Source: Parcubacteria group bacterium (GTDB taxonomy: Bacteria; Patescibacteriota; Minisyncoccia; JACPHC01). Taken from it: 64,000 nucleotides of DNA. This document shows, in pieces, positions 4,021 to 40,565 of the stretch. A program made the translations under genes and the position numbers. The stretch is from assembly GCA_016188775.1 (NCBI GenBank), contig JACPHC010000006.1, forward strand, positions 618-64,617, written 5' to 3'. Within the stretch, counting starts at the first letter, position 1; each line of letters opens with the position of its first letter. Under the pieces are notes generated by a model, which ran no database searches, was not told the origin of the DNA, and saw nothing but the letters and a program-made list of their open reading frames with translations.

Positions 4021-4111
4021 ATTTGTTTCTTGTTTAATTAAAATATTGTATAATACTGACACAACCGTGAATAATAATTTTTTCAACTCAAAAAAGAGGG
4101 TTATTTTGGGA

Positions 4112-5824
4112 ATGGTTTTTGTTATTTTATTTTTGGCGCTGATTGTTCCTTTAAAAACCGAGGCTTCTATATGGAATCCACTTGACAATCTTTTAGACGC
4201 TATCATAACTGCTATTGTTCAAATATCTAATTTTCTAGTTGGATGGATTCTCTATATTATTCTTACCCCATTAGGCATATTCGCCGGCTGGCTTCTTGAT
4301 CCGACACTGATCCCGATTATTAACAGCGATGTTGTGACAACCGGTTATAAAATCACTTTGGATTTAGCCAATATGTTTTTTGTTTTGATTATTATAGTTA
4401 TCGCGTTCGCGACAATTTTTCGAATTAAAAGTTATGGCGCGGAGAGTCTTTTACCGAACTTAATTATCACCGCGGTCCTAATTAATTTCAGTAAAGTGAT
4501 TGCCGGAGTGGTCATTGATTTTTCCAATGTTTTAACCTCTTTTTTCCTCGAGAGAATATCAAGCAATTCCAGCGGCGTCTCGGCATCAATCGCCAACGCT
4601 CTTAAAGCGGCGGCTCTTTTTCCCACAAATCTTCCATCGGGCACCGGATCAAGTTTAGCGGGCTGGTTGAATGTTCTGGGCGGAATAATAGTCACTTGGA
4701 TTTTCGCTTTAGTAACCATCGCCGTCTTTGCTTCTTTTGTAGTTTTATTATTTTCCAGGGTTTTTGCCTTATGGATGCTTCTGATCGGAGCGCCTTTGGC
4801 TTGGCTTTTTCGAATCTTGCCTAAAACCCAAAAATATTGGAATGATTGGTGGGAAAAATTAATCAGCTGGTCTTTTGTCGCTCCTGTTTTTTCTTTTTTT
4901 CTTTATTTAGCCCTTAAAACCAATCAAACCATGAAAGATGCGCTTGGAAATCCACTTACGGACAACACTGGAGCGGGCGCTGAATTATCAAAAACTAATC
5001 CTATGCTTGAGCCGACTTTTTTGCTCAATTACATAGTTTTAATAGGCCTTCTATTGTATGGCGTTAAAACTTCCAAAAAAATGGCCGATTATATGCCTCA
5101 AGCCTTGTCAGCCGGCTGGCAAAGCGCCAAGGGCGGTTTTAAAAAAGCCGCTGGCATAAAAAGCCTTCAAGAACGAGCTAAAGAATTTGGGGGGAAAGTT
5201 GGCGAAAAAACCTCGCAAATCGCTTCTCGTTTACCCGGGGCCGGTCTTGTTTTACCCAAAGCCGGGGAAATAAGAACTGCCAGAAAAATAGAAAAAGGAG
5301 CCAAAAAAACGGGAGAACAGGCCAAACAAGAAATGGATGTTATTAAAAAACGAGCTCGAGGAGCAGTGTTAACCAAGGAAGAACAAAAAATAGCCGATAA
5401 TCCTCAATATTTAGCAAAAACGGAACAAACAGCGTTAGAAAAACAAGCTCGAGGAGCAGTGATGACTCCGGAAGAACAAAAAACAGCTGCAAGGCTTGAT
5501 GCTGCTTACGCTACCAGCGATCTTGATTTTGGCCGTAATGTTATTGAACAAAAAGCAAAAAATATCGCCCAACGCAGCACTATTGGTCAAAGATTAAAAA
5601 TAAGAGCCAAAAGCGTAATACGCCCGTCGGGAATCCTTACACCCACTCCCACCGCTGATGAGGCCGCGCTTCTTTTAGCCACTTCGCATAAAACTTATAA
5701 AAAAGAGTTTGAAAAACGCAAAAAAATAAATCAATGGCCTTATTCTGAAGGACAAAAAACTGCAAAAGAAAAAGCTTTGGAATCACTGGAAGAGTATTTT
5801 AAACCGCCGCCAACTTCGCCATAA
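4112..5824 (+). CDS. Polytopic membrane protein resembling VirB6/TrbL/PrgH-like T4SS channel components, with a Lys-rich hydrophilic C-terminal domain
   Basis: It has about 6 or more predicted TM helices after a signal-like N-terminus, then a roughly 200-aa charged tail. The start at ATG 4112 is preferred because it is preceded by AAGAGGG (Shine-Dalgarno). The ORF-track start 4046 is the alternative. The family call rests on topology and context only. Confidence 0.4.
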   Translation: MVFVILFLALIVPLKTEASIWNPLDNLLDAIITAIVQISNFLVGWILYIILTPLGIFAGWLLDPTLIPIINSDVVTTGYKITLDLANMFFVLIIIVIAFATIFRIKSYGAESLLPNLIITAVLINFSKVIAGVVIDFSNVLTSFFLERISSNSSGVSASIANALKAAALFPTNLPSGTGSSLAGWLNVLGGIIVTWIFALVTIAVFASFVVLLFSRVFALWMLLIGAPLAWLFRILPKTQKYWNDWWEKLISWSFVAPVFSFFLYLALKTNQTMKDALGNPLTDNTGAGAELSKTNPMLEPTFLLNYIVLIGLLLYGVKTSKKMADYMPQALSAGWQSAKGGFKKAAGIKSLQERAKEFGGKVGEKTSQIASRLPGAGLVLPKAGEIRTARKIEKGAKKTGEQAKQEMDVIKKRARGAVLTKEEQKIADNPQYLAKTEQTALEKQARGAVMTPEEQKTAARLDAAYATSDLDFGRNVIEQKAKNIAQRSTIGQRLKIRAKSVIRPSGILTPTPTADEAALLLATSHKTYKKEFEKRKKINQWPYSEGQKTAKEKALESLEEYFKPPPTSP

Positions 5825-7623: not shown

Positions 7624-8511
7624 ATGAGATTAGCTTTAAATCCAAAAATAAATTCAATGATTTTACCGGCGGTTAGCCTGCTGACCGTTTTAGGTATTGG
7701 TTTAATCGGTTTTGGTGTTTTTAAATCCGGCAATAAATTGGAAATAGAATTTAAAAACGGCCGGCTGACTCCTCAAAGCACCCAAAATATCAGCGAAATT
7801 TTTTCTCAAAATCTCAAAAAGGCGATTTCCCAAAACGTCGCTCCGGAAAAAATTTTTGAAAACACAAAGTTGAATTTCAAAAGCGACGAAACTTTAACCG
7901 CGCTTTTATCTCAAAATTTTCTTTCCGAAATAACCAAAAAAAATCCGGCCCAAATTCAAGATCCGTCTTTTATAGAAGCTCTTAAAGATTCATCTGATCC
8001 GGCAAGTTTTCTGGGAATCAGCGATTTAAATCCGGCTTTTGCCGATAAATCAAAAGAAATTATGAATTCATTGATTTACAACCCGCCGAGCTTTACTACC
8101 AAAAATAACGCCAGTTTGAAAGATAAAGTAAATTATTTCTCCGCTCTTAAAAATTTAATCTTGCCGTTTCAAAAAACAAACCCTTTAATTATCCAGGCAG
8201 CGCTGCAAACAAAAAATTACGCCGAACTGGATAGACGGATTGAAAAATTAAAAACCTCTCTCTTGAGCTTTGAAAAATTAGAAGCGCCGAAAGAATACAT
8301 CGATCTTCATAAAAAAATAATCAGTTTTAACGGCTATCAAATCAACGTTTTTGAAGAAATAAAAAAAGCCGGGGAAAATAACGATCCTTTAAAGCAATAT
8401 CTGATTATAATTTCTTACGATGAAATTTTAAATAATAATTATAAAACAACTATTTTAGAAACAATAAACGAAGCTAAAAAAATGATTAGCGAGATTAAGA
8501 AACTAAAATGA
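7624..8511 (+). CDS. Bitopic membrane protein, with an N-terminal TM helix and a ~250-aa extracytoplasmic domain. The topology is VirB8-like
   Basis: 295 aa with one TM helix near the N-terminus. The VirB8 comparison rests on topology and context only. Confidence 0.4.
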   Translation: MRLALNPKINSMILPAVSLLTVLGIGLIGFGVFKSGNKLEIEFKNGRLTPQSTQNISEIFSQNLKKAISQNVAPEKIFENTKLNFKSDETLTALLSQNFLSEITKKNPAQIQDPSFIEALKDSSDPASFLGISDLNPAFADKSKEIMNSLIYNPPSFTTKNNASLKDKVNYFSALKNLILPFQKTNPLIIQAALQTKNYAELDRRIEKLKTSLLSFEKLEAPKEYIDLHKKIISFNGYQINVFEEIKKAGENNDPLKQYLIIISYDEILNNNYKTTILETINEAKKMISEIKKLK

Positions 8512-10535
8512 AAAAACTCCTCACAATTATATTAATTTTTTCTCTCATCGTTTCTTCTTTTATTTTCAGCTTTCAAAAAACTTACGCTGGAGAACCTGTG
8601 ACCGATCCCCTCACTGAATTTATGACAGGTCTCACGTCTTTTGTAACAACTGTCTCGTCAATATATGACCAGATAGCTAACGAAGATAGCATTTTTGCCA
8701 CAGCGGCTAAATACGCATTATTGGTAGCTGGAACGCTTATTATGAACCAGATAACTAATGATATGATAAATTGGATTAACAACGGATTTGACGGCAAGCC
8801 GGGTTTTGTTCAAAATCCTGAAGGATTAATTAAAAAAGTCGGAGACCAAGCGGCCGGTTCTATTTTAACGACTCTGGCCGGCAATCAACTCTGCGAGCCG
8901 TTCAAATTAAATATTCAGATACCGTTGCAGGAAGTCTCGTCTTTTAACGATGAAGTTCAATGCACCCTCACGAAAATAGTTGAAAATATTGATTCTTTTT
9001 ATGACGATTTTTCAACCGGCGGCTGGCTCGCTTGGGTTCATTTAACCAAACCGCAAAATAACGCCATTAGCTCTTATTTAATGATCCAAGATGAATCGGC
9101 GCGCCAAGAGAGCAAATCCACAAAAAATACTTTTGACGAAATAAACCGCAATCAAGGATATTATTCCGTCAAAGAATGCAGCGCGAGCTTTGATTCTATA
9201 GATGTCCCCACCGGAGAAAAAAACGGAGTCAGAACGTTAACCGGTAAAACCCAAGAGAATATCTGGGATCAAGTCGCTAAAGCTGTCACTGATAGCGGCG
9301 GTGAAACGGTTTATCGCATAAAAGGTGAAATTCAATGTTCAACTAAAACTCCGGCGCAAGTTGTTTCAGGCACCTTAAATGAAACTATTACCGGAGGAAA
9401 TAAAATAATGCAACAATCAATATCCGATTTAACCGCGTCTTTAGGACTGCAAGGCAGTTTTTTTCAACCATTTATTACAGCGATGTTGAACGCCTTAATT
9501 AATAAAGGCGTTATGGAAGGATTGGCCGCGGCCCAAACAGCTTTAACCAACACGGAATCTTCGCCAATTAACTCTGTTCCCTCCGACGAAGCGGTTGATG
9601 ACTCTACTTTAGTAGACACAACCAGATCCGATATAGCCCAAGTTGAAAGCATTAAAAGATCCCTTAATCCGGGTTTAAAACAACAACTTTCATTAGTCTC
9701 TGACGCTTTAATTCCCGCAATTGATGTGGCCGGCCAAATTCAACAAACCGAAATTAATATATTAGAAACTGAAGGAAAAATGGCCGCTATAAACGAGGCT
9801 TTAGTTAAAGGCGGTCGAGCCGCGTCCTGCGTTTTTCCAACTGATACTACTGACAGAACAATTACCACTATTATAACTTCTACCAATGCCACTTATCCCA
9901 ATGCCACTGCTCTTGATGATAAAATGGCAAGAACTATAGACGTTAATGTTACTGACAGTAAATATGGAAAAGGAACGCCAGCTACAACTTTGCGTATTAT
10001 CACCGCCACTGCTCAAACAACCGATCTCTTCGGCAATACTTTTGTTAATGTAGGCGTCAATTCAGTGACAGCAATTTCGTCTCCTCAATATCAAACTCCT
10101 ATTGACGCTGCGCTTAGCAATTATACCACTGAAAAAACCAGCGCTGATAACGCTTTAAATAATATTGATCCGACAATGACTAGTCTTCAAATTTATTTAG
10201 ACAACGCTGATTCATTTATTGAAATTGGCAACGCCAATGTTCAAGCCGGGACCACAATTGCCCAATCTGACAAAGATACGCTCCAGCAAAATAAAGATAA
10301 TGCCCTTAATAGTCTAGCGCCGATTATAAGCCCAGAAACTGCCAATGATTTTTCCAGTTATAATTCAAAAATTTCCGATTTAAACGTGGAGACGTTTGAC
10401 CGCGCCGACAATATTAATCGCGAAGTCGGCTCATCCAGTTCAACCGATCCCCTAACTCTTTACGGACAATTAAACGACGCCAGCGGCGCTCTCGCTTCAA
10501 TTCAATCTTCTTACGCCGCTTGCGCCGCCTTTTAA
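8508..10535 (+). CDS. Large secreted Thr/Ser/Asn-rich protein, a candidate surface, adhesin or pilus-associated protein
   Basis: 675 aa with a cleavable-type signal peptide (MKKLLTIILIFSLIVSSFIFSFQKTYA). Its start overlaps the upstream stop by 4 nt, suggesting translational coupling. Confidence 0.5.
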   Translation: MKKLLTIILIFSLIVSSFIFSFQKTYAGEPVTDPLTEFMTGLTSFVTTVSSIYDQIANEDSIFATAAKYALLVAGTLIMNQITNDMINWINNGFDGKPGFVQNPEGLIKKVGDQAAGSILTTLAGNQLCEPFKLNIQIPLQEVSSFNDEVQCTLTKIVENIDSFYDDFSTGGWLAWVHLTKPQNNAISSYLMIQDESARQESKSTKNTFDEINRNQGYYSVKECSASFDSIDVPTGEKNGVRTLTGKTQENIWDQVAKAVTDSGGETVYRIKGEIQCSTKTPAQVVSGTLNETITGGNKIMQQSISDLTASLGLQGSFFQPFITAMLNALINKGVMEGLAAAQTALTNTESSPINSVPSDEAVDDSTLVDTTRSDIAQVESIKRSLNPGLKQQLSLVSDALIPAIDVAGQIQQTEINILETEGKMAAINEALVKGGRAASCVFPTDTTDRTITTIITSTNATYPNATALDDKMARTIDVNVTDSKYGKGTPATTLRIITATAQTTDLFGNTFVNVGVNSVTAISSPQYQTPIDAALSNYTTEKTSADNALNNIDPTMTSLQIYLDNADSFIEIGNANVQAGTTIAQSDKDTLQQNKDNALNSLAPIISPETANDFSSYNSKISDLNVETFDRADNINREVGSSSSTDPLTLYGQLNDASGALASIQSSYAACAAF

Positions 10536-10664
10536 ATTAGAAAATTAATCCCGTTAAAAATCGCGGATACGTAATTAAAATATGATATATATAAAAAATA
10601 AAATTTATAAATAATAAAATAGAGCCTCGGATGCTTTTTGCGCCCGCATTCTATTTTTAACGGG

Positions 10665-11387
10665 ATGAAAAAATTTTTTCTTACAATTTTCATTTCTTTG
10701 TTAATGCCTTTTTTAACATTGGCTATCGTAGCTAAATCAAAACCTCAACTTAATCAGCCGCTTCAAATCATTCTTTCTTGGACGGTTCCCTCTTCAATAC
10801 CTTCTCTTTACAAAGGCCGAGCCTTGCCGACTTTAAATTCATTTGTCCAAGTCAATGCCGATGCAATAAATGGAACGGATAAAAAAGAAAATCTCATCTT
10901 TAAATGGTTTGTTGATAACGACTATCAGCCTTTAGTTTCGGGCCGAAATAAAAATAATTTTAAATTTCAAATTAAAAAAGGGGTGGACGACCTTTATAAT
11001 ATCAAGCTGGAACTTCGCAAAACCGACTCCAGTCAAACGCTCTTGGCGACCAAAAATATTTTTATTCCCATCACCAATCCGGAAATTATCTTTTATAAAT
11101 TAAATAATGAAACGGCGATTAATAAAGAAATAAATATGTCCATTGGCCAATCTATTGATATAACAGCTGAACCTTATTTTTTCAACTCGCCGAAAGGAAA
11201 TTTAAAATATGAATGGACGATAAACGGAGGAAAAGCGAAAACGGAAAAACCGGATATTTTGAATTTAACGGCTCCGGAAGGAAAACTGCTCTCTCCGGTC
11301 TTAAAATCCATTGGGCTTAAAATCAGCAAAACCTTTTTTCCGGCCCAGCAAACGGAAGAATCTTTTAATTTAAAAATTTCCCAATGA
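10665..11387 (+). CDS. Secreted hypothetical protein
   Basis: Signal peptide MKKFFLTIFISLLMPFLTLAIVA. The start at ATG 10665 is preferred over the track start at 10638. Confidence 0.5.
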   Translation: MKKFFLTIFISLLMPFLTLAIVAKSKPQLNQPLQIILSWTVPSSIPSLYKGRALPTLNSFVQVNADAINGTDKKENLIFKWFVDNDYQPLVSGRNKNNFKFQIKKGVDDLYNIKLELRKTDSSQTLLATKNIFIPITNPEIIFYKLNNETAINKEINMSIGQSIDITAEPYFFNSPKGNLKYEWTINGGKAKTEKPDILNLTAPEGKLLSPVLKSIGLKISKTFFPAQQTEESFNLKISQ

Positions 11388-12271
11388 AAAAAATCATTAT
11401 TGTTGTTATATTTTTAGTTTTTTTCGTTAATTTAGCTCAAGCGGTTGAATTGACCTATCCGTCCGTTGGGCAAGGCATAACCACTCCCGCCGGCGCCACC
11501 AGCGATTTAGGAAATTATCTCGCATATGTTTACACTCTCGGCTTAGGCGCTTCCGGCATTGCCGCTTTGGCAATGATTGTCTGGAGCGGCATCAAATATA
11601 TGACTTCGGAAATTGTCACTTCCAAAGAAGAAGCGCGCAAAGATATTCAAGCCGCTCTTTTTGGACTGGCTTTGCTTCTGGGCGCTTATTTGATCTTAAA
11701 CACCATTAATCCTAATTTAGTCAGCTTAACTAATCCTGAGCTTGAAAGGCCGGCTGCGGTTCAAGGATATTGCGGCACGTCCGGACAAAAACAATCTGAA
11801 TTTACTCCGCCAAGTTGTTGCTCTGGCTATCAATCTGATAATGAAGGTATATGTAGATACGTCGGTCTAACTGAAGGCAGCGCTTGCCCTGCCACGATAA
11901 CAAACGGCGTTAACTGCTCAAGCGACCAGGTTTGCTCTAATAACAAATGCAAAGTTAAAGCATCATTCAATGAAACCTGCAGCGATGTGAAAAATAGTTC
12001 AGATTGCCTTTCAGGCCTCACCTGCATATCAACAGGGATAATTGGCGGTAATTGTCATAAGCCAACGGGCCAAAGAGTCGAAAGCGAATATTGCGGAGAT
12101 AATATTAATAGTTGCGGTTCCGGATTAAAATGTTCTGCCGGTATTTGCGTGGTCAGTACTTCTACCACAGCAAAAACAACTAACGAAGCCTGCACCAGTG
12201 GTCCTGAATGCCAAAGCAATCGATGCGAATACCCTGATAGCAGATCAACTAGTAGAACGTGCCAACCTTAA
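11384..12271 (+). CDS. VirB2/TrbC-like T4SS pilin domain (signal peptide plus two hydrophobic helices) fused to a ~180-aa Cys-rich C-terminal extension
   Basis: Signal MKKIIIVVIFLVFFVNLAQA. Helix 1 is LGASGIAALAMIVWSGIKYM, followed by a polar turn TSEIVTSKEEARKDIQ, then helix 2 AALFGLALLLGAYLILNTINP. The C-terminus has four C-x(5-7)-C-x-SG-x-C-x(3-8)-C-like modules. Confidence 0.5.
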   Translation: MKKIIIVVIFLVFFVNLAQAVELTYPSVGQGITTPAGATSDLGNYLAYVYTLGLGASGIAALAMIVWSGIKYMTSEIVTSKEEARKDIQAALFGLALLLGAYLILNTINPNLVSLTNPELERPAAVQGYCGTSGQKQSEFTPPSCCSGYQSDNEGICRYVGLTEGSACPATITNGVNCSSDQVCSNNKCKVKASFNETCSDVKNSSDCLSGLTCISTGIIGGNCHKPTGQRVESEYCGDNINSCGSGLKCSAGICVVSTSTTAKTTNEACTSGPECQSNRCEYPDSRSTSRTCQP

Positions 12272-12277
12272 TAGACT

Positions 12278-12676
12278 ATGCAATTTCAAGTCCCCCAATT
12301 CATTGAAGTGGAAGATAAAATCATCGGCCCTCTCACGCTCAAACAATTTCTTTATATCGCCGCTCCCGTAGGCTTTACTTTTCTTTTAAAATTTTTCTTA
12401 AGTCTGCCGTTTATGATTCTTTTAGGCGGGCCGACCGTGCTTTTCGGTTTCGCTCTGGCGTTTTACAAACCCGGCGGCCGGCCTTTTATCGTAATGATAA
12501 AATCTTTTTTTAATTTTCTGTCCAAGCCCCGTCTTTATATGTGGCAGCATCCGCGAACAAAAGAAATCACTCTGGAAAAAGAACTTATTCCCCAAACTAA
12601 AAGATTAAAAGAGCAAAAATGGAAATTGAACATATTTTCCGCCAAAGGCGGATCCGCCTCTGGCGGGAAAAAATAA
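12278..12676 (+). CDS. PrgI/VirB3-like small membrane protein of Gram-positive-type T4SS
   Basis: 132 aa. The N-terminus MQFQVPQFIEVEDKIIGPLTLKQFLYI is followed by two TM helices, and the gene sits immediately upstream of VirB4. The family is recognised from memory. Confidence 0.5.
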   Translation: MQFQVPQFIEVEDKIIGPLTLKQFLYIAAPVGFTFLLKFFLSLPFMILLGGPTVLFGFALAFYKPGGRPFIVMIKSFFNFLSKPRLYMWQHPRTKEITLEKELIPQTKRLKEQKWKLNIFSAKGGSASGGKK

Positions 12677-12798: not shown

Positions 12799-13449
12799 AT
12801 GGCAAAACCTGAAGCGTCGACTCAACAATTTGTTATAATAGATCAAATCCGCGATAACGTGGTGTTTTTAAAAGACGGACAAATGCGCGGAATTTTAGCC
12901 GCCTCTTCTCAAAATTTCGCCCTAAAAACCGAAGAAGAACAGCAAGCGACTCTTTATCAATTCCAAAATTTTCTAAACACTTTGGATTTTTCTTTGCAAA
13001 TTGTCGTTCATTCCCGCAAATTGGATATCGCTCCTTATCTTTCCTATTTGGAAGAGGCGACCAGAAAAGAAGACAACGAACTGATGAAAATTCAAACACA
13101 AGAATACACGGAATTTATCCGTTCTTTTGTCCAAGGCTCAACGATTATGACTAAAAGTTTTTATGTTGTGGTGCCATTCGCTTTACTGGCCGGCGCGAAA
13201 AAAACCGGCGGAATTTTGAGCCTTTTCAAAACCGCGGCTGCTCCGGCCAAAACCTTGGCTAAAATGTCCGAAAAAGAATTCCAGGCTTATAAAAACCAGC
13301 TGGATCAAAGAATGGATCAGGTGGCGGCCGGGCTGACCAGGACCGGCACTCGGACCATTTCGCTCGACGCCGACAGCCTGACGGAACTTTTTTATGAAAT
13401 TTATAATCCCGGCGAAGTCAAACAAAAACCGAGAGAAATACCGGAGTAA
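12799..13449 (+). CDS. N-terminal ~216 aa of a Gram-positive-type VirB4 (TcpF/PrgJ/TrsE-like), separated from the ATPase body by an in-frame 219-bp insert
   Basis: The motif FVIIDQIRDNVVFLKDGQMRGILAASSQNFALKTEEEQQATLYQFQNFLNTLDFSLQIVV matches the conserved start of VirB4-like proteins. It is in the same reading frame as 13669..15444. Confidence 0.5.
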   Translation: MAKPEASTQQFVIIDQIRDNVVFLKDGQMRGILAASSQNFALKTEEEQQATLYQFQNFLNTLDFSLQIVVHSRKLDIAPYLSYLEEATRKEDNELMKIQTQEYTEFIRSFVQGSTIMTKSFYVVVPFALLAGAKKTGGILSLFKTAAAPAKTLAKMSEKEFQAYKNQLDQRMDQVAAGLTRTGTRTISLDADSLTELFYEIYNPGEVKQKPREIPE

Positions 13450-13668: not shown

Positions 13669-15444
13669 ATGACTAATAATACTGAAACAATCCTAACTGA
13701 AGGAACGGTTTCAATCAAAGATATTATCGCCCCTTCGGCTCTGGAAGTTAACGCCAATTTTATAAAAATCGGCGGCAAAATCGCCCGCACTTTTTTTGTT
13801 ATTTCCTACCCAAAATTTTTAACCACGAATTGGCTTTCGCCGATTATAAATCTGGATAAAATTTTGGATGTTTCTTTATTTTTTCACCCGGTTGACACCG
13901 CTATAGTTTTAAAAAACCTCCGCAAAAAAGCCGCCCAAGTCGAATCCCAATTAATGGCTCGGGAAGAAAAAGGCCAAACCCGGGATCCGGTGCTGGAAGC
14001 CGCCATTGCCAACATTGAAGAATTAAGGGATCGGTTGTCGCAGGCCACGGAAAAACTTTTTAAATTTGGACTTTATTTTACTTTATGGGGAGAATCTTTG
14101 GAAGAATTGGAAAAAACAGAAAATGAAATTCGGACAATGCTGGAAGGCCGACTGATAATGACCAAAACAGCCACTTATCAGCAGGAAGAAGGATTTAATT
14201 CAGCTCTGCCAACCAATGACGACCAACTCCAAATCACTATGCCTATGAACACCGACACCATTTCCAGCGCTTTTCCTTTTGTTTCTTTTGACCTAACTTC
14301 CAATAAAGGCATACTTTACGGCATCAACCGGCACAATAACAGCCTGATAATTTTTGACCGGTTTTCTTTGCCTAATTACAACTCTCTGATTTTTGCCACC
14401 TCGGGCGCGGGCAAATCTTACACCACCAAACTAGAAGTTTTGCGAGCAATGATGCTGGGCTCGGACGTGATGATTTTAGATCCGGAAAATGAATACGAAT
14501 ATCTATCCCAGACAGTCGGAGGAAGTTTTTTTCGCATATCTCTGACGTCTAAACATCATATTAATCCTTTTGATCTGCCAAGACCGCGATCGGACGAAAA
14601 TCCGGCTGATGTTTTAAGATCCAATATTATTAATCTGGTCGGCCTGCTTCGCATTATGCTGGGCGGCCTGAGCCCGGAAGAAGACGGCTTGATTGACCGG
14701 GCCATCACTGAAACTTACGCCGCGCGAAACATTACCGTGGAAAGCGATTTTTCCAACGCCGAGCCGCCTTTGATGTCCGATCTTCAAACAGTTTTAGAAA
14801 GCCTGGAAGGCGGAAAAAATTTAGCCACGAGACTGGAAAAATACACCCGAGGCAGTTACGCCGGATTTCTTAATCAGCCGTCCAATGTTGATATCGGCAA
14901 CCGCCTGGTTGTTTTTTCTATTCGGGATATGGAAGACGAGCTCCGTCCAATCGCGATGTATATTATTCTCCATTTCATCTGGAACGAAATCCGTCGGGAA
15001 ATTAAAAAACGAATTTTAATAGTGGATGAAGCCTGGGTTTTAATGAAACATGAAGACGGCGCTTCTTTCCTTTTTGGGATTGCCAAAAGAGGAAGGAAGT
15101 ATTATTTGGGACTTACCATTATCACGCAAGACGTGGCGGATCTTATGAATAGCCCTTACGGTAAGCCCATTGTCACCAATTCCTCTATGCAACTTTTGTT
15201 AAAACAATCGCCGGCCACGATTGAAACGGTTGTTAAAACATTTAATCTGACGGATGAAGAAAAATTCCTGCTGCTGGAATCAAACGTCGGGGAAGGAATA
15301 TTTTTTGCCGGACTCAAGCACGCGGCTATAAAAGTAATCGCCTCCTACGCCGAAGATCAAATTATCACATCGGATCCTTCTCAACTACTGGCGATTCAAA
15401 AAGCCAAAGAGCAATTAGTCCAAGCTGAAGAAAAAGTGATTTAA
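13669..15444 (+). CDS. VirB4/TrbE/CagE-family T4SS ATPase (central and C-terminal parts)
   Basis: Walker A is LIFATSGAGKSYT and Walker B is RILIVDEAW. The N-terminal region IIAPSALEV..IGGKIARTFFVISYPKFL..WLSPII is typical of VirB4. Walker A sits at residue ~243 of this ORF. That only fits the usual position if the 216 aa of the upstream ORF are added. Confidence 0.85.
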   Translation: MTNNTETILTEGTVSIKDIIAPSALEVNANFIKIGGKIARTFFVISYPKFLTTNWLSPIINLDKILDVSLFFHPVDTAIVLKNLRKKAAQVESQLMAREEKGQTRDPVLEAAIANIEELRDRLSQATEKLFKFGLYFTLWGESLEELEKTENEIRTMLEGRLIMTKTATYQQEEGFNSALPTNDDQLQITMPMNTDTISSAFPFVSFDLTSNKGILYGINRHNNSLIIFDRFSLPNYNSLIFATSGAGKSYTTKLEVLRAMMLGSDVMILDPENEYEYLSQTVGGSFFRISLTSKHHINPFDLPRPRSDENPADVLRSNIINLVGLLRIMLGGLSPEEDGLIDRAITETYAARNITVESDFSNAEPPLMSDLQTVLESLEGGKNLATRLEKYTRGSYAGFLNQPSNVDIGNRLVVFSIRDMEDELRPIAMYIILHFIWNEIRREIKKRILIVDEAWVLMKHEDGASFLFGIAKRGRKYYLGLTIITQDVADLMNSPYGKPIVTNSSMQLLLKQSPATIETVVKTFNLTDEEKFLLLESNVGEGIFFAGLKHAAIKVIASYAEDQIITSDPSQLLAIQKAKEQLVQAEEKVI

Positions 15445-15455
15445 AAAAATAATTT

Positions 15456-16580
15456 ATGTCTAGACGCAATCTAATAATTTTAATATCGGCGGTGATTTTG
15501 ATAATAATAACTATTATTTTAATCCTGACAGTTTTTTTGCGCCGGCCCGGCCCATTACCAACGCCCGCGCCTTCAGGAGGGGGGTTTATTATCCCCGAAG
15601 AACCGACTCTTCCAACGGTTTCTAAAGAAAAGGTTCGCGCTTTGAGCGAAAATCCGGCCGGCGCTTTGCATATAGTCAATGATCGGCCGCGATTCTGGGA
15701 TAAAGAAACCGGCTTCATTTTCGAAACCAGCCCTGACGGCGCCGAACCAAAAAGAATTTCTCGCGATCAACTGGCCGATGTTGTCAATATCCTGCCGCTT
15801 TCCGACAATGAAAAAATTGTTTTGGCGGAGAAAGAAAATAACCAAATAAAATATTCAATCTACAACCTTGTTTCTGGGACAAAAAATCTTCTGCCAAACG
15901 GGATTAAATCAATCGCCGTTTCACCAGACGGGAAAAAAATCGCTCTCTATTTAACTGACGGCCAAAAAAATAAACTGGTTATTACCGACGCGGACGCCAT
16001 AAACGCTAAAACAGTCGCGGAACTTAACCTGGATAAAATAAATCTCTCCTGGACCAACGCCAATATGATTTTAATGGCTGAACCGGCCTCAGGTCTGGCC
16101 TCAAGCAGTATTTTAAGTTTTAACGCGGAAAAAAAGCAACCGGATTTGATTGTTGATAATTTATTCGGACTGGAAGCTATTACCTCTTCTGATTTCTCAA
16201 AAATGATTTATTCAAAAACTAATCAAGCCGGCGGCGGCCTTTCTCTTAATCTTCTGGATTTAAGCACAAGAGAAGCGAAAAGCCTGGCTATCGGCACTTT
16301 CGCTTCCAAATGCGTTTTTTCGAAATCTAATCGAGAAATTTTTTGCGCCGTTCCGTCTGAACTGAAATCTTCAATATTGCCGGATGATTACTATAAAGGA
16401 ATATTGAGAACCAATGATTCTTTATTTAAAATCAACCTGGAAACAGCGGAATTTAGCGAAATAATAAACGGCTTTGAACGTCCGTCTTTCGATATTGTCA
16501 AACCTCTTTTAAATTCGTCAGAAGACTTTTTATTCTTTATAAATAATTTGGACGACAAGCCTTACTCAATTAAACTTTAA
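15456..16580 (+). CDS. Membrane-anchored protein with a TolB-like/beta-propeller-like extracytoplasmic domain
   Basis: N-terminal TM helix, then repeated SPDGKKIALY-type blades. Confidence 0.4.
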   Translation: MSRRNLIILISAVILIIITIILILTVFLRRPGPLPTPAPSGGGFIIPEEPTLPTVSKEKVRALSENPAGALHIVNDRPRFWDKETGFIFETSPDGAEPKRISRDQLADVVNILPLSDNEKIVLAEKENNQIKYSIYNLVSGTKNLLPNGIKSIAVSPDGKKIALYLTDGQKNKLVITDADAINAKTVAELNLDKINLSWTNANMILMAEPASGLASSSILSFNAEKKQPDLIVDNLFGLEAITSSDFSKMIYSKTNQAGGGLSLNLLDLSTREAKSLAIGTFASKCVFSKSNREIFCAVPSELKSSILPDDYYKGILRTNDSLFKINLETAEFSEIINGFERPSFDIVKPLLNSSEDFLFFINNLDDKPYSIKL

Positions 16581-17022
16581 TCACGGGTTTAATAATAACA
16601 TAACGCTCCGGCTCATTTCCTTCGCTTTCGGTTGTCAAATCAACTTCTCCGGCCAGCGCCAAATGAGCCGTTCTTCTCTCATAAGCGGACATTGAAGGCA
16701 AAGCAACGACTTTTTTAAAAAAGCGCGCTTCTTTCGCTTTTTCCAAAACCATTTCTTTAATCTCTTTCTCTCTGAATTCGCGCCAATTATTCACGTCAAT
16801 TATAAATGAAGGAGCTTCGCCCATCCGTTTCCGAATCACCAGATAAATCAGGTGATTAAAAGCCGCCAAAACTTCCGGCTTATTATTTGTCCAGCGATCG
16901 AGATCGCCGATAAAAATATTATATTTATTTTTATCGGCGTCTTGAGATAATTCAATCGTATGCTCAAAGCCCAAAACATTGATAAATTCTCTGATTAAAT
17001 TTTTTAATTGGTCTTCGTTCAT
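16570..17022 (-). CDS. jag: Jag/KhpB-like R3H-domain RNA-binding protein
   Basis: 150 aa in the conserved position downstream of yidC. The C-terminus has R3H-like ...YERRTAHLALAGEVDLTTESEG. Confidence 0.6.
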   Translation of the reverse strand: MNEDQLKNLIREFINVLGFEHTIELSQDADKNKYNIFIGDLDRWTNNKPEVLAAFNHLIYLVIRKRMGEAPSFIIDVNNWREFREKEIKEMVLEKAKEARFFKKVVALPSMSAYERRTAHLALAGEVDLTTESEGNEPERYVIIKPVIKV

Positions 17023-17151
17023 CTCGCACGATGCAGATCGCGATCGAAAGACGCAATCCGCTTGTATTAATTTTTTATAATTTCAAATTTATAATATTCG
17101 CGTATATCCCGAGAAGAAGCGATCGCGACTTCGTACGGGATAAAACTAAAT

Positions 17152-17898
17152 TCAATTCTTCTGTATTTTAGATTCTAGATTCTGATTATTGACGTGTTTT
17201 TCTTTATAAGGAAACCGTAAGGACAGATACTGCTGTAAAATAGCAAAGAGATTAAAAGTTGTCCAGTAAAGAGCAATAGCCGCTGGCCAAGATAAAGAAA
17301 TAAAGCCGATCAGGGCCGGAAAAACATAGACCATCTGTTTGTTTAATATATTGGAAAGATCGCCGGGGCTGGTGGTTTTTTGATCTTTCGGCAACATCAT
17401 TTTTGACTGCCAAAATTGAGAAACGCCGGCTAAAGCCGCGAGCGCTATATTGCGAGTCTGACTCAAATCAATAAAGCCGAGAAAAAGGGGATTGATTTGA
17501 CCCGGATTTTTCACGAAATCGTACAAAAAATTTAAAGAAGACTGATCAAGTCCGACGCGAAAAACCTTCAAAAGAGCGAATAAAACCGGAATTTGAATCA
17601 AAATAGTTAAAAAACCGGAAAAAGGATTAACTCGATGTTCTCGATAAAGATTGAGCAATGCCCGGCTTTGTTCTTCTTTGCTTTCTTTAAAATTTTTTTG
17701 AATTTCCTTAATTTTCGGCTGCAGCAAAGTCATTTCTCTTTGTGACTTTAACGCTTTTTGAGAAAGAGGATAAAGAATCAAACGGACAAAAATTGTCAGT
17801 AAAATAATTGCCACGCCAATATCGGGAACAAGGTCGTAAAAAAATATTAATAAATTAAATAGCGGCAGAAAAAGAAAATTATTGAATAATGAAGACAT
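17152..17898 (-). CDS. yidC: Membrane protein insertase YidC/Oxa1 (short form)
   Basis: 248 aa with 5 TM helices, in the rnpA-yidC-jag context. Confidence 0.75.
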   Translation of the reverse strand: MSSLFNNFLFLPLFNLLIFFYDLVPDIGVAIILLTIFVRLILYPLSQKALKSQREMTLLQPKIKEIQKNFKESKEEQSRALLNLYREHRVNPFSGFLTILIQIPVLFALLKVFRVGLDQSSLNFLYDFVKNPGQINPLFLGFIDLSQTRNIALAALAGVSQFWQSKMMLPKDQKTTSPGDLSNILNKQMVYVFPALIGFISLSWPAAIALYWTTFNLFAILQQYLSLRFPYKEKHVNNQNLESKIQKN

Positions 17899-17906
17899 TT
17901 TTATTA

Positions 17907-18254
17907 TTAATTAATGATGTTATTTTGTTTTAAAATTAATTCAAAAGTTTTTTGAATATCTTTAAAATTTGCTTTGGCCGCTTCCGGAGTCAAGCTAATC
18001 ACAATATCGAAACTTTTTGAAAATGCGGATGATTTAAGAATCGCCCGAGCCGCTTCTCTCATCTTTCTTTTTAAGCGATTCCTTAAAGTTGATTTTTTAG
18101 ACACTTTGGTTGAAATAATAAAACCAAATCGGCTTTCCGGCAGATAATTCGGCGAATATCTTAAAATTAAAAAGCCGCTCTTAAAAATCCGACCGCGCTG
18201 AAAAACATTATCAAAATCTTTTTTTTCAGTTATCCGATTGCGTCGAGCTAACAT
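17907..18254 (-). CDS. rnpA: Ribonuclease P protein component
   Basis: 115 aa basic protein lying between rpmH and yidC. Confidence 0.75.
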   Translation of the reverse strand: MLARRNRITEKKDFDNVFQRGRIFKSGFLILRYSPNYLPESRFGFIISTKVSKKSTLRNRLKRKMREAARAILKSSAFSKSFDIVISLTPEAAKANFKDIQKTFELILKQNNIIN

Positions 18255-18389
18255 TTAAACCGTGATATTCCAGCGCCCTTTTTTCTGGCGGCGTTTTAAA
18301 ACTTTTTTACCCCCGGCCCGGCTTTTTCTTTTTAAAAATCCGTGCGTCTTTTTACGTTTTTTCTTTTTAGGCTGATAAGTAATGGACAT
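18255..18389 (-). CDS. rpmH: 50S ribosomal protein L34
   Basis: Hand translation of the minus strand gives MSITYQPKKKKRKKTHGFLKRKSRAGGKKVLKRRQKKGRWNITV. It is absent from the ORF track because it is shorter than 60 aa. Confidence 0.85.
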   Translation of the reverse strand: MSITYQPKKKKRKKTHGFLKRKSRAGGKKVLKRRQKKGRWNITV

Positions 18390-18502
18390 ATTTTAATTAT
18401 TTAATTAAGATTAGCCTAGCATTAAATTCATCAACAATCAATCCACACTTTATTCACTAAATTTATTCTTGACTATATATATTCACAGCTTATTATAAAA
18501 AT

Positions 18503-19891
18503 ATGGGGGACGAAAAAATATTTTCAAAAGAAGAATTATGGCAAGCGGCCCTTGGCGAAATAGAGCTTAATATTTCAAAAGCGAATTTTTTAACTTGGCT
18601 TAAAAATACTTCCATTGATTCCATTAAAGAAGGAGTAGTGGTGATTAGCGTGCCTAATCATTTTTCAAAAGAATGGCTGGAAAATAAATATCATAAATTT
18701 ATTTTCCAAGCTTTAAAAAAATTAATTTCGGAAATCAATAAAATTGATTATATTATCAACGCCAATGCGGAAAATAAAAATACCGCCGCTCCGGAAAAAG
18801 AAAAAACTAAAAAAATCAATGAAACAGCCTTATTAAAAGAGCAACTTAGTCTCGCTGAAATTGAAATCAATCCAGAAACAAATCTTAATCAACGCTATAT
18901 GTTTGATACTTTTATTGTCGGATCTTCCAACGAACTGGCGCACGCGGCGGCCTTAAGCGTGGCTAAAAATCCCGGTCAGACCTACAATCCTTTGTTTATT
19001 TATGGAGGAGTGGGGCTTGGCAAAACTCATCTTTTGCAGGCAATCGGCAATGAAGCCCAAAAAAAAGAGAAATTAAGAGTAAAATACGTCACTTCGGAAA
19101 AATTTACCGAAGAAGTGGTAACCGCTATTCAAAACCACACAATGAATCAATTAAAAAATAACTATCGTAAAACCGATATTTTAATTGTCGATGATATTCA
19201 ATTTTTAGTCGGTAGAGAAAAAACTCAAGAAGAATTTTTTCATCTTTTTAATACTTTATACGAAAAAAATAAACAAATTATTCTTTCCTCGGATCGACCT
19301 CCTAAATCTATTGCCACGCTCGAAGACCGTCTGCGGTCGCGTTTTTCCGGTGGAATGATCGCGGATATCGGATATCCGGATTTTGAAACGCGTCTCGCTA
19401 TTTTAAAAACGAAAGTCGCGGCTCATAATTTTAAAATAAATGAAAATATTTTAATTTATATCGCCAACGCTATTACTCAAAATATTAGAGAAATTGAAGG
19501 CTGCCTAACACGACTAATCGCTTTTACTCGTCTAACTAAAAAAGAACCCACCGAAGAAGAAGCTATTAGAATACTTAATGAAGTGATAAAAACTCCTAAA
19601 AAAATTTTTAACATTAAGCAAATAATAAAAACAGTGGCTAATTTTTATGATATTGAGGAAAAAGATTTAATAGCTAAAAACCGACAAAAAGAAATTGTTA
19701 AACCCCGGCAAGTCGCGATGTATCTTTTAAGAGAAGATTTAAAGTCTTCTTTCCCGTATATCGGAAAAAAATTTGGCAATCGCGATCACACGACAGTTAT
19801 TTACGCTTGCGAAAAAATTAATGATTTAATTAAAACAAATGAAACAATAAAACAGGAAATTGGGATAATTCGCGAACGTTTAAATAACTAG
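18503..19891 (+). CDS. dnaA: Chromosomal replication initiator DnaA
   Basis: AAA+ Walker A GGVGLGKTHLL. The C-terminal DNA-binding domain is present. The gene is divergent from rpmH and upstream of dnaN. Confidence 0.95.
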   Translation: MGDEKIFSKEELWQAALGEIELNISKANFLTWLKNTSIDSIKEGVVVISVPNHFSKEWLENKYHKFIFQALKKLISEINKIDYIINANAENKNTAAPEKEKTKKINETALLKEQLSLAEIEINPETNLNQRYMFDTFIVGSSNELAHAAALSVAKNPGQTYNPLFIYGGVGLGKTHLLQAIGNEAQKKEKLRVKYVTSEKFTEEVVTAIQNHTMNQLKNNYRKTDILIVDDIQFLVGREKTQEEFFHLFNTLYEKNKQIILSSDRPPKSIATLEDRLRSRFSGGMIADIGYPDFETRLAILKTKVAAHNFKINENILIYIANAITQNIREIEGCLTRLIAFTRLTKKEPTEEEAIRILNEVIKTPKKIFNIKQIIKTVANFYDIEEKDLIAKNRQKEIVKPRQVAMYLLREDLKSSFPYIGKKFGNRDHTTVIYACEKINDLIKTNETIKQEIGIIRERLNN

Positions 19892-20099
19892 GAATAAATT
19901 GTGGAAAAAATATTGAATAAATAGTTGAAAATTATTTTTAAAAAATTATTTTTAAAAATATCCACAATTAAAATATATATTATTCACTGAATAACATATT
20001 AAAAATTAGCTAATAAAAAGCATTTTTGGAAAAAAATAAATAAAAAGTCATCTTAATAATAATAAATTTAATTAATAATAATAATAAAATTTAATTATA
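19892..20099. promoter_or_regulatory. Putative oriC segment: an AT-rich dnaA-dnaN intergenic region with DnaA-box-like 9-mers
   Basis: TGTGGAAAA at ~19901 and ATATCCACA at ~19961 are each one mismatch from TTATCCACA. A long AT-rich tract (AATAATAATAAATTTAATTAATAATAATAATAAAATTTAATTATAATGG) precedes dnaN, whose ATG is its final three bases. More boxes (AATCCACAC, ATTCACAG) lie upstream of dnaA at 18440-18480. Confidence 0.45.
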
Positions 20100-21200
20100 A
20101 TGGAAATAATTTGTTTGCGAGAAAATTTATTAAAAGCGATAAATCAAACGGAAAAAATTATTGGAAAAAATTTTTCTCTTCCGATTTTAAATAATCTTTA
20201 TTTTAAAACCGAAAAAGGAAGATTGAAGATTACCGCTACTAATCTCGAAATCGCTATTTCCAGCTGGGTGCCGGGAAAAATAAATGAGGAAGGAGAAACG
20301 ACTATTCCGGCGAAAATTATTTCCGGTATTATTTCCGGTCTGTCCGATGATAAAATAAACCTTAGATTTAAAGATAATTTATTAATAGTTAAAACAGATA
20401 ATTATCAGGCTCAAATTAATACTATTAACCCGAAAGAATTTCCTTTAATTCCTAAAATAAAAAGTGAAAATAAAATAAAAATTAATCAAAAAATTTTAAA
20501 AAAACATCTTTCGCGGGTTATAAAAGTCGTTAGTGAAAGCACTATTAATTCCGTTCTTTCGGGAATTTTAGTGGATAATAAAAAAAAGGAAATTAAATTT
20601 GTGGCTACGGATAGTTTTCGTCTGGCCGTCAGTATTGAAAAAAAAGAGAATGAAAATGAAGAAATTTCTTTCATTATTCCTTTTAGAACCGCGCTGGAAA
20701 TTATTAGATTAAGTTCTGACAAAGATTTTGACGTTGAAATTAATATAGGAGAAAATCAGGCGGTATTTATTTTTGAACAGTCGGAAATTATTTCCAGACT
20801 AATTGAAGGGAAATTTCCCGATTACGAAAAAATAATTCCCAATAATTTTGAAACAAAAATATTTCTTGATAAAAACGATTTTTTAAAAAATATTAAATTA
20901 GTCGGTCTATTTTCCGCCCGTCTTGGTGAAATAAAAATTAATCCTTTAAATGATAAAGAAAATCTAGAAATAAAAGCTGAAGAAAATAATTTAGGAACAA
21001 ATAAATCCGTTATTTCAGCTCAAATTCAAGGAAAAACAGAAGAAGTTGTTTTTAATTATCGTTATCTTTTAGATGGTCTTGATAATTTAGAAGAAAATAA
21101 AATTATTTTTTCTTTAAATGGAAATTCCGGCCCGTCTTATTTGAATTCATTAAATAAAGCCGATTATTTTTATCTTTTGATGCCAATTAGGAATCAATAA
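20100..21200 (+). CDS. dnaN: DNA polymerase III beta sliding clamp
   Basis: 366 aa immediately after dnaA, with a three-domain clamp-like length and pattern. Confidence 0.85.
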   Translation: MEIICLRENLLKAINQTEKIIGKNFSLPILNNLYFKTEKGRLKITATNLEIAISSWVPGKINEEGETTIPAKIISGIISGLSDDKINLRFKDNLLIVKTDNYQAQINTINPKEFPLIPKIKSENKIKINQKILKKHLSRVIKVVSESTINSVLSGILVDNKKKEIKFVATDSFRLAVSIEKKENENEEISFIIPFRTALEIIRLSSDKDFDVEINIGENQAVFIFEQSEIISRLIEGKFPDYEKIIPNNFETKIFLDKNDFLKNIKLVGLFSARLGEIKINPLNDKENLEIKAEENNLGTNKSVISAQIQGKTEEVVFNYRYLLDGLDNLEENKIIFSLNGNSGPSYLNSLNKADYFYLLMPIRNQ

Positions 21201-39715: not shown

Positions 39716-39736
39716 TTTTTAGTTTTTTAATTTAAT

Positions 39737-39822
39737 AAGTATTCTAAAAAATTTTTGAGGTCGAGGCGCTTTAATGAAATTATATAATCCGCCGAGGGTA
39801 CCTAAAAATTTTTAGGATACTT
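39737..39822 (+). repeat. Family-2 ~86-bp element upstream of the thioredoxin-like gene
   Basis: It is nearly identical to 38299-38384. Confidence 0.8.
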
Positions 39823-39849
39823 ATTGAACATTATTTTATCAAAAAGTTT

Positions 39850-40104
39850 ATGATTCTTTTAGAAGAAGTGGTGGCGCCGGGCTGCCACATTTGCAAAGAA
39901 TTTGAAAAATTTTGGGAAACGATCAAGGGAGATTTTCCCAATGTTGAGTTTAAAAAAATTGACGTTACCGCGCCTGAAGGAATGGCCATAGCCCAAAAAT
40001 ATATGATTTTCGCTTCCCCGGGAATTATTATCAATAATGAACTTTTTTCCACCGGCGGGTTTGACAAAGAAAAAATCGTGAAAAAATTGAAAGAGCTGTC
40101 GTAA
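39850..40104 (+). CDS. Small thioredoxin/glutaredoxin-like protein (CxxC = CHIC)
   Basis: 84 aa, APGCHICKEF. Confidence 0.5.
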   Translation: MILLEEVVAPGCHICKEFEKFWETIKGDFPNVEFKKIDVTAPEGMAIAQKYMIFASPGIIINNELFSTGGFDKEKIVKKLKELS

Positions 40105-40124
40105 GAATTGTTATCATTTTAAAT

Positions 40125-40562: not shown

Positions 40563-40565
40563 ATA

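Follow-up and report, generated by a model that had tools for sequence, protein, structure and literature searches.

Across the Patescibacteria, chromosomal type IV secretion systems (T4SSs) related to MPF-FATA are found close to oriC, with TrsD, PrgI and 'VirB2-like' pilins of Pfam family PF18895 among their components (Quinonero-Coronel et al. 2025, PMC12102498). For the one genetically tractable Patescibacterium studied the T4SS is essential for epibiotic life (Wang et al. 2023, in the summary given by PMC12857230). The present subject is a gene for a pilin of this kind in a 64,000-nucleotide stretch of a Parcubacteria group genome (that whole stretch being termed the window), whose product continues beyond the pilin domain into a long cysteine (Cys)-rich C-terminal tail. 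Its N-terminal part is a VirB2-like pilin-domain protein of the PF18895 lineage, encoded within an oriC-proximal chromosomal T4SS typical of Patescibacteria, and its 166-amino acid (aa) tail consists of five 4-Cys units. The secretion system and its VirB2-like pilins are already published; the Cys-rich tail described here is rare and uncharacterised, and it fits a broader, proposed pattern of a pilin scaffold with swappable heads.

Taken with identity, exposure and function combined, the tail is probably, though by no wide measure, a module that faces outward from a T4SS pilin scaffold and makes contact with a host or a cell wall. The parts of the gene are as follows (P0002 is the one homologue of the tail).

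11384..12271, + strand: open reading frame (ORF) of 295 aa, VirB2-like pilin domain plus Cys-rich C-terminal tail (ORF coordinates, NCBI identity)
11384..11443, + strand: Sec-type signal peptide, aa 1-20, MKKIIIVVIFLVFFVNLAQA then VE (sequence, hydropathy)
11444..11737, + strand: mature pilin domain, aa 21-118 (PF18895 match, alignment, AlphaFold2, custom hidden Markov model (HMM))
11696..11713, + strand: LNTINP motif, aa 105-110, at the outer end of helix 2 (alignment of relatives)
11771..11854, + strand: first 4-Cys unit, C130-x14-C145C146-x10-C157, with a conserved CCSG, unlike the later modules (sequence; kept in P0002)
11885..11950, + strand: module M1, C168-x9-C-x5-C-x4-C189 (module HMM; AlphaFold2 beta-hairpin 182-185/188-191)
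11978..12055, + strand: module M2, C199-x8-C-x5-C-x9-C224 (sequence, module HMM)
12092..12148, + strand: module M3, C237-x6-C-x5-C-x4-C255 (module HMM; best-predicted part of the tail, predicted local distance difference test (pLDDT) score 67-82)
12191..12262, + strand: degenerate module M4, C270-x5-C-x4-C-x11-C293 (weak module-HMM score; Cys align with P0002)

The pilin domain

The reading frame runs uninterrupted through 295 codons from an ATG at 11384 to a stop ending at 12271, exactly where a first-pass annotation of this DNA, made from the sequence alone, had placed it. The encoded protein is NCBI MBI2451097.1, 'hypothetical protein HYV52_02035 [Parcubacteria group bacterium]', from a metagenome-assembled genome, and the identical protein is present on 2 contigs and in three sources (NCBI, Logan and nr).

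The signal peptide and the two hydrophobic helices separated by a charged turn, on which that annotation rested its pilin assignment, are seen in the hydropathy profile, with peaks at about aa 46-66 and 86-105 and the charged turn KYMTSEIVTSKEEARKD in between; AlphaFold2 places helices at aa 39-74 and 78-108 (pLDDT 78-94 for the hairpin). Signal peptidase would be expected to cut after Ala20 (AQA followed by VE, aa 18-21), as predicted by the A-x-A rule. Close to the N-terminus that cleavage creates, the mature domain has a conserved xYP motif; helix 1, the basic loop and helix 2 come next, and the sequence LNTINPxLxxLxxP is last. In the alignment A61, I108, N109, P110 and P118 are invariant, and conservation is sharpest at the end of helix 2 (AYLILNTINPxLxxLxxP), where I108-N109-P110 is unchanged in 35/35 relatives.

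Assignment to a family is by relatives as much as by the protein itself. Residues 54-108 match positions 17-71 of the 71-position PF18895 (T4SS_pilin) model with E=2.7e-4, at a score under the gathering cut-off. A database search yielded 34 relatives, the region common to them being the pilin domain, and PF18895 is matched at E<=0.01 by 35/35 sequences (best E 2.8e-10), some of which exceed the cut-off (P0033 with 38.6 bits, P0006 with 27.6 bits). A pilin-domain profile retrieves 289 proteins, almost all of them precomputed as PF18895. Since the relatives are members, membership of the window protein is secure by transitivity despite its own score. A profile of the relatives' pilin domains gives the window ORF 111 bits and one of 120 short pilins gives it 127 bits; neither of these independent profiles detects a further, plain pilin gene anywhere in the 64 kb, the runner-up having E 0.59. 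Together with its position in a T4SS operon, this bears out the earlier view of the N-terminus as of T4SS pilin type.

Links to pilins of other families are fainter. NCBIfam NF045849 (the Mbov_0395 family) matches aa 41-108 weakly (E 0.014). PF04956 (TrbC/VirB2) does not match the window protein at E<=1 and is weakly matched by 2/35 relatives (best E 0.0017). The designation 'VirB2-like' is used because of the definition of the PF18895 family, these weak PF04956 cross-matches and the architecture.

The cysteine-rich tail

All of the Cys residues of the protein lie between aa 130 and 293, and they number 20, not the approximately 26 first estimated. The spacings between them are, in order, 14, 0, 10, 10, 9, 5, 4, 9, 8, 5, 9, 12, 6, 5, 4, 14, 5, 4 and 11. 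Cys makes up 6.7% of the protein, against a mean of 0.53% for the long ORFs of the window and 1.3% for the next highest, so that the pilin-fusion gene is the only Cys-rich ORF there; at the background rate a stretch of 166 aa would contain 20 or more Cys with a binomial probability of about 5e-21.

The first-pass annotation had also proposed at least four modules of the form C-x(5-7)-C-x-SG-x-C-x(3-8)-C. Taken strictly, C-x(5-7)-C-x-SG-x-C occurs only twice (CLSGLTC and CGSGLKC). The actual repeat is a looser module of four Cys with the spacing C-x(5-9)-C-x(4-5)-C-x(4-11)-C, present in four copies, at aa 168-189, 199-224, 237-255 and, in degenerate form, 270-293, with the residue consensus (E/Q)xC-x4-9(..D)-C-x(S/T)(G/P)Lx-C-x4-10-C. 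A non-circular test of the module is provided by an HMM built solely from the six modules of P0002 and run on 386 ORFs of the window: it picks out the window ORF with E=1.2e-7, three of the modules scoring singly (i-E 1e-4 to 7.5e-3) and the fourth weakly (i-E 2.6).

Homologues of the tail are exceedingly few. With aa 121-295 as query, phmmer against 1.84 billion representative proteins returned only the protein itself and P0002 (E 4.8e-13), a word-indexed search with the tail returned only the protein itself, and comparison of the tail with PDB sequences gave no match. The tail is thus nearly an orphan, and no function can be transferred to it. P0002, from a different sequencing run, has 339 aa and is 46% identical overall; in the tail, where identity is 35%, 19/20 Cys align and the linker is kept. 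It carries two extra modules, from which gain and loss of modules follows. A further relative, the 168-aa pilin P0006, has a single copy of the 4-Cys module, with a weak match to the Huwentoxin-II Pfam family (E 0.0019). Among pilin tails this specific module was found only in P0001, P0002 and P0006, other Cys-rich tails being of different types.

One family of the databases is pertinent. The window protein scores 16.3 bits with DUF7107 (PF23416) at full length and 9.8 bits with the tail alone, below the cut-off of 24.6; P0002 passes that cut-off with 30.9 bits in 4 matched stretches, one copy of the 48-position model covering two consecutive 4-Cys modules. Because its homologue passes, a distant kinship of the window tail with DUF7107 is likely, judging by these profile scores. 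No literature on DUF7107 was found, and the family is uncharacterised.

The first-pass annotation had recommended structure prediction together with a structure search. AlphaFold2 was run on the full-length protein with a 35-sequence alignment and on the tail alone with a clean 2-sequence alignment. The full-length model is confident only for the pilin hairpin and M3, with pLDDT below 50 for most of the tail. In both models the last two Cys of M1, and likewise those of M3, are spanned by a beta-hairpin; the tail-only model has one in M2 too. Foldseek found nothing at E<=0.001 for either the full-length or the tail model; its best matches for the tail, none significant (best E 9e-3), were double inhibitor cystine knot (ICK) toxins, colipase/MIT1, Dickkopf and hevein lectins. 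The likenesses of this low-confidence model to toxins, colipase and Dickkopf are a hint only.

The resemblance to knottin or EGF-like modules that had been read into the tail does not survive. A knottin of the ICK type has, in some 30-40 aa, six Cys paired in three disulfides of knotted topology, the repeat units here have four Cys, and no knottin Pfam family matches. For an EGF-like domain the same Cys count applies, and no EGF-family Pfam model matches the tail at E<=10. A hevein-like, chitin-binding reading of the CCSG unit was also considered and rejected: hevein has the Cys pattern C-C-S-x2-G-x-C-G, the spacing here is unlike it and Chitin_bind_1 does not match. The tail is concluded to be a string of small hairpin modules, putatively stabilised by disulfides, and, having four Cys per unit and no HMM match to either fold, not a demonstrable knottin or EGF domain.

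The surrounding locus

The neighbourhood was compared with two other loci in particular, L001, the independent contig that encodes P0002, and L003, in which the pilin, P0016, has a peptidase-like tail. The relevant genes of the window are these.

4046..5824, + strand: polytopic membrane protein, VirB6/TrbL-like (33% identity, E 1e-18, to a PF19590 TrbL_3 gene of L003)
8508..10535, + strand: 675-aa secreted protein, family not recognised (52% identity in L001)
10638..11387, + strand: 249-aa protein, secreted or in the membrane, with translational coupling to the pilin gene that follows (homologues in L001 and L003)
12278..12676, + strand: PrgI family (VirB3-like) protein (PF12666, 29.9 bits, cut-off 27)
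12799..13449, + strand: TrsD / VirB4-N-terminal-like protein, 216 aa (NCBIfam matches, below cut-offs)
13669..15444, + strand: VirB4-type T4SS ATPase of the CD1110 family, 591 aa (NF045971, 383.6 bits, cut-off 325; PF19044)
15456..16580, + strand: 374-aa membrane-anchored protein (homologues in L003, E 1.6e-23, and in several GTDB loci, beside T4SS genes)
18503-19891: dnaA, about 3 kb from VirB4
20100-21200: dnaN

The operon is tight, the start of the pilin gene overlapping the upstream stop by 4 bp (ATGA) and PrgI beginning 6 bp past the pilin stop. A homologue of the 249-aa gene lies directly upstream of the pilin fusion in both L001 (47% identity) and L003 (24%, E 4e-8), and the gene is also conserved in several GTDB loci; the 675-aa and 249-aa exported proteins are candidate partners of the pilin-domain protein. 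Gene order in L001 is as in the window, with proteins of 674 aa and 237 aa, the pilin and PrgI in succession. This recurrence of the pilin and Cys-rich architecture and of its flanking genes on an independent contig from another sample disposes of a caveat raised in the first-pass annotation, that the tail might be a separate, mis-joined ORF. In L003, P0016 directly follows the homologue of the 249-aa gene and precedes that of the 374-aa gene (w10638 and w15456, respectively), PrgI, TrsD and VirB4 are in the same cluster, and P0016 is the sole pilin-domain gene within 8 kb. The same slot in the T4SS cluster therefore holds the pilin scaffold with a different head.

The 4046..5824 protein has no Pfam match of its own. 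The 12799..13449 protein matches the VirB4_plasma N-terminal region (E 7.9e-11) and TrsD (E 2.5e-5) of NCBIfam, both below cut-offs, and its homologue in L003 is annotated as PF26593 TraC-like. A monoderm-type VirB4 with TrsD, PrgI/VirB3 and, nearby, a VirB6-like protein marks an MPF-FATA-like cluster, and the window has all of these, the last as a TrbL_3-like protein by homology. Among the subset of window ORFs that was scanned there is no relaxase or coupling protein. VirB4 is split, its 216-aa TrsD-like N-terminal part and 591-aa ATPase part being separated by a 219-bp gap, an arrangement reported to be typical for Patescibacteria.

The origin gene set adjoins the T4SS cluster (16570-21200), with jag-like, yidC and rnpA genes on the minus strand followed by dnaA and dnaN. 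The cumulative GC skew has its minimum at about 18-20 kb, consistent with oriC being there. The remainder of the window holds housekeeping genes, amid which (in the ruvA/B/C region, with YebC) a lone T2SSE-family, PilB/GspE-like secretion ATPase is encoded at 27666-29324 on the minus strand.

A thiol-redox/copper cluster is present at 38474-40967 and 41187-43616 of the window. It encodes a DsbD_TM/CcdA-like membrane protein of 413 aa, a small thioredoxin with a CHIC motif and a DoxX/MauE-family protein, as well as a cupredoxin-like protein (minus strand) and a heavy-metal P-type ATPase. A possible role for the redox cluster is with exported proteins that have many disulfides, the Cys-rich pilin among them.

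Tails on related pilin domains

A wider view of what follows the pilin domain came from species-representative genomes sampled by the motif [YW][LAM][IL]LNTINP, the best 80 loci of 494 confirmed matches being kept; sampling in this way favours the LNTINP subfamily and sequences close to the query alignment. In this biased sample more than 100 aa follow the pilin domain in 57/79 pilin-domain ORFs complete at their 3' end, with a median of 180. Pfam recognised 20 of the 65 tails of at least 60 aa: five YkuD, five NlpC/P60, two SLT_2, two SLT_3, and one each of SLT, Peptidase_M15_4, VanY, Amidase_2, Amidase_5 and Extensin-like_C, all 20 save Extensin-like_C being annotated as peptidoglycan-acting. 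Already among the first 34 relatives there are fusions with YkuD L,D-transpeptidase, NlpC/P60 and SLT_3 lysozyme-like domains. (The loci and proteins behind the fused-pilin pattern are L003/L004, 8001-8849; L005-L084; and P0005-P0031.)

A large group of relatives shares a conserved tail of about 130 aa, 'GTE...SHxNGYKxD...ExxHW(D/H)', with invariant E, H, H, D, E and H; alignment A6 shows it in P0005, P0007, P0008, P0011, P0012, P0014, P0016, P0019, P0022 and P0023. On inspection of the motif alone its spacing fits LAS/M15 zinc peptidases; Pfam did not recognise it and a profile search of the PDB, giving no matches, did not confirm it either.

At the other extreme are short pilins, the best 120 protein-database matches having 81-153 aa (median 130) and at least 95 of them having N-x-INP. 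Short and long forms thus both appear common in the databases. At least 10 tail Cys are found in 12/84 sampled pilin-domain ORFs, 10 of the 12 being within 6 kb of VirB4, PrgI or TrsD; some such tails are disulfide-containing lysozyme-like enzymes, and others, those of L065 (26 Cys), L081 and L035 for example, are truly Cys-modular but of other types. Mini-tails with 4-6 Cys end 5/120 short pilins (P0038, P0044, P0048, P0068 and P0140 being listed as such), and in P0034 Cys modules stand between the signal peptide and helix 1 (aa 37-100). Such sequences suggest that bare pilins grade continuously into pilins with multi-module tails, both ends of the protein being exposed. A separate observation concerns L002, where two long pilin-domain genes (8001-9041 and 9920-11050, P0030), one with 22 Cys, are outside any T4SS cluster and interleaved with genes for pyruvate:ferredoxin oxidoreductase subunits, a DsbA-like thioredoxin gene being about 2 kb away.

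Topology, function and rival explanations

VirB2 and F-type pilins have an N-out/C-out topology. The same orientation, with the tail outside the membrane, would hold here by analogy because of the basic loop (positive-inside), the peptidoglycan-acting tails of relatives and the occurrence of Cys modules at either end of the hairpin; a tail so placed could be oxidised. Identity and exposure by themselves are, on this footing, highly probable.

The course of events envisaged is that Sec would export the pilin-tail protein, the signal peptide being removed after Ala20, and that the two helices would enter the membrane as a hairpin, leaving the basic loop (K71, K81, R85 and K86) on the cytoplasmic side and both ends outside. 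In the extracytoplasmic tail the 20 Cys could form about 10 disulfides, stiffening small beta-hairpin modules. The pilin domain may dock to the VirB3/VirB4/VirB6-like machine, whether as a subunit of a proposed T4SS pilus or conduit or at its base, and the tail would then project through or beyond a thin envelope to contact the surface of a host cell or its wall, for recognition or adhesion. On this proposal the tail would be a swappable head: the scaffold, and with it the locus slot, is shared with relatives whose heads are peptidoglycan hydrolases or Cys-rich domains of other kinds. The CcdA/DsbD-type, thioredoxin and DoxX/MauE genes of the window also count in favour of the proposal. Contact with host or wall is preferred because of exposure, rapid divergence (one homologue, with modules gained and lost) and the role of the T4SS in a host-dependent lifestyle (PMC12857230); adhesion or recognition as the function of the tail, taken separately, is put forward tentatively and with appreciably less assurance than exposure. 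As the sole pilin-domain gene of its locus, the gene would supply the subunit if a filament exists. An appendage of about 175 aa per subunit, together with the enzyme-fused relatives, nevertheless leads towards the role of an anchor or minor subunit.

Several results weigh against the proposal as a whole. The protein's own PF18895 score, 21.4 bits, is below the gathering cut-off of 26.6. A profile search of PDB sequences gave nothing relevant, hence no sequence link to solved VirB2/TraA pilins, and the top 50 Foldseek matches in the PDB include no pilin, what was returned being helical hairpins of a generic kind with a best E of 0.35. For the tail, no characterised homologue was found in the 1.84 billion representatives by phmmer, in the word-indexed search or among PDB sequences, and its fold is not confidently predicted, the tail-only AlphaFold2 model having a mean pLDDT of 49. 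Neither DsbA nor a VKOR-type oxidase was found in the window. In the geometry of the F-pilus, a domain of about 175 aa on every subunit would crowd a VirB2-type filament. Finally, a T4SS pilus has not been demonstrated experimentally for any Patescibacteria (PMC12857230).

There is a serious rival, serious because of the enzyme-fused relatives, even if on present evidence it is on balance unlikely: that the pilin-like hairpin does not polymerise but is a two-helix membrane anchor or docking element of a monoderm T4SS, the tail not being displayed on a filament. The tail could then act in the bacterium's own envelope, as a rigid spacer or as a peptidoglycan-binding element in place of the VirB1-like hydrolase of relatives. 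Tails of more than 100 aa in 57/79 of the sampled LNTINP-type genes accord with it, as do the peptidoglycan-acting enzymes that make up at least 20 of the 65 scanned tails and would be bulky cargo for a filament subunit, the peptidase-like fusion in the same slot in L003, and the want of an experimental pilus (PMC12857230). However, short LNTINP pilins (median 130 aa) are abundant, and a pilin array is essential in Southlakia epibionticum (Wang et al. 2023, summarised in PMC12857230), so that the pilin domain has a role beyond anchoring. Moreover, this is the only pilin-domain gene in its locus, and any filament made from the locus must use it, while the tail matches no known peptidoglycan-binding domain in Pfam.

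Less probable by far is that the protein is the precursor of a secreted peptide, the INP...P boundary being a processing site at which the tail is freed as a soluble disulfide-rich effector or toxin-like polypeptide, with the pilin domain as its export carrier. An invariant motif stands exactly at the domain boundary, RP4 TrbC pilin undergoes C-terminal processing, double-ICK toxins, colipase/MIT1 and Dickkopf come out best, if not significantly, in the structure search with the tail model, and the module of P0006 has its weak Huwentoxin-II match (E 0.0019). But short pilins, which have no tail to set free, keep the motif just as strictly, and a structural part in the pilin domain is for that reason the simpler explanation of it. 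Beside the pilin-fusion gene there is no conserved protease gene, and the structural matches rest on a model with pLDDT 49, none reaching E<=0.001.

That a frameshift or an assembly mis-join brought a short pilin gene together with a separate Cys-rich gene can hardly be credited, for although most of the protein-database matches are commonly short pilins of some 130 aa, the frame has no interruption, the same protein comes from NCBI, Logan and nr and from 2 contigs, P0002 from a different sample keeps the fusion, its synteny, the linker and the Cys register with 19/20 Cys aligned, and in-frame tails of other kinds are found on dozens of relatives; a mis-joined ORF is accordingly rejected.

Returning to the proposed contact module on a pilin scaffold, a bolder generalisation, speculative and with the balance against it, is that Patescibacteria use the VirB2-like pilin domain as a modular scaffold for display: T4SS pilus or conduit subunits would carry interchangeable outward heads, either disulfide-rich binders or cell-wall hydrolases, which together would let an epibiont both recognise its host and breach the host envelope locally. 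If true, it would explain the apparent lack of a separate VirB1 in most such T4SSs, and the window protein would bear a lineage-specific, rapidly evolving host-recognition head. The hydrolase-fused pilins bear on the absence of a separate VirB1 that has been reported for most such systems, and their frequency may be the reason for it. Should the fused-tail pattern hold, the 'pilin' may be an anchoring or export platform and not merely a filament subunit. The cargo of these T4SSs and their mode of host contact are open questions of the field, and an exposed, disulfide-stabilised, fast-evolving tail is a candidate host-contact element.

Comparison with described systems

With the VirB2-like PF18895 pilins of Patescibacteria the window protein shares a signal peptide, the helical hairpin and an LNTINP-type motif at the C-terminal end of the domain, and its gene shares the neighbourhood of PrgI, TrsD and VirB4 and the chromosomal position near dnaA. 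Those of the literature are small, whereas the window protein is longer by about 175 residues, 20 of them Cys, and no mention of fused domains or Cys-rich tails on Patescibacteria pilins was found in the open-access T4SS literature searched. In Southlakia epibionticum the pilin genes form an array (Wang et al. 2023, summarised in PMC12857230); in the window there is a single gene. With regard to the tail, membership of DUF7107 (PF23416) divides the two closest proteins, P0002 passing the cut-off and the window protein not.

TrbC/VirB2 and F-type TraA pilins (PF04956) have the same plan of a cleaved signal peptide, two hydrophobic helices and a short basic loop. They are, however, proteins of diderm hosts, and the window protein, with no PF04956 match, belongs to a monoderm host and an MPF-FATA-like T4SS; its large C-terminal domain would in addition preclude head-to-tail cyclisation unless it were cleaved off. 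With the Mbov_0395 family, a pilin-like conjugal transfer protein of Mycoplasma integrative conjugative elements (ICEs), the NF045849 match spans nearly the whole 80-residue model, though with 15 bits against a cut-off of 40, and the Mycoplasma ICE VirB4 model (Mbov_0397 family) is likewise matched by the VirB4 and TrsD-like proteins of the window. The Mycoplasma proteins are tail-less, judging by the 80-position model. These profile matches are hints that a pilin-like hairpin protein may be an old component of monoderm T4SSs and not a recent import from diderms.

A different type of parallel is with the membrane-anchored, VirB1-type cell-wall hydrolases of Gram-positive T4SSs (PMC12102498), for instance PrgK, TraG of pIP501 and CwlT. 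They and the window protein have genes in the T4SS cluster of a monoderm and are alike in combining an N-terminal membrane anchor with a domain outside the cytoplasm (in the window protein, by prediction), and relatives of the window protein carry YkuD, NlpC/P60, SLT, M15 and amidase domains on the pilin-like anchor. The window tail differs in being without a catalytic-domain signature, and its anchor is a hairpin of the pilin family instead of a single transmembrane helix.

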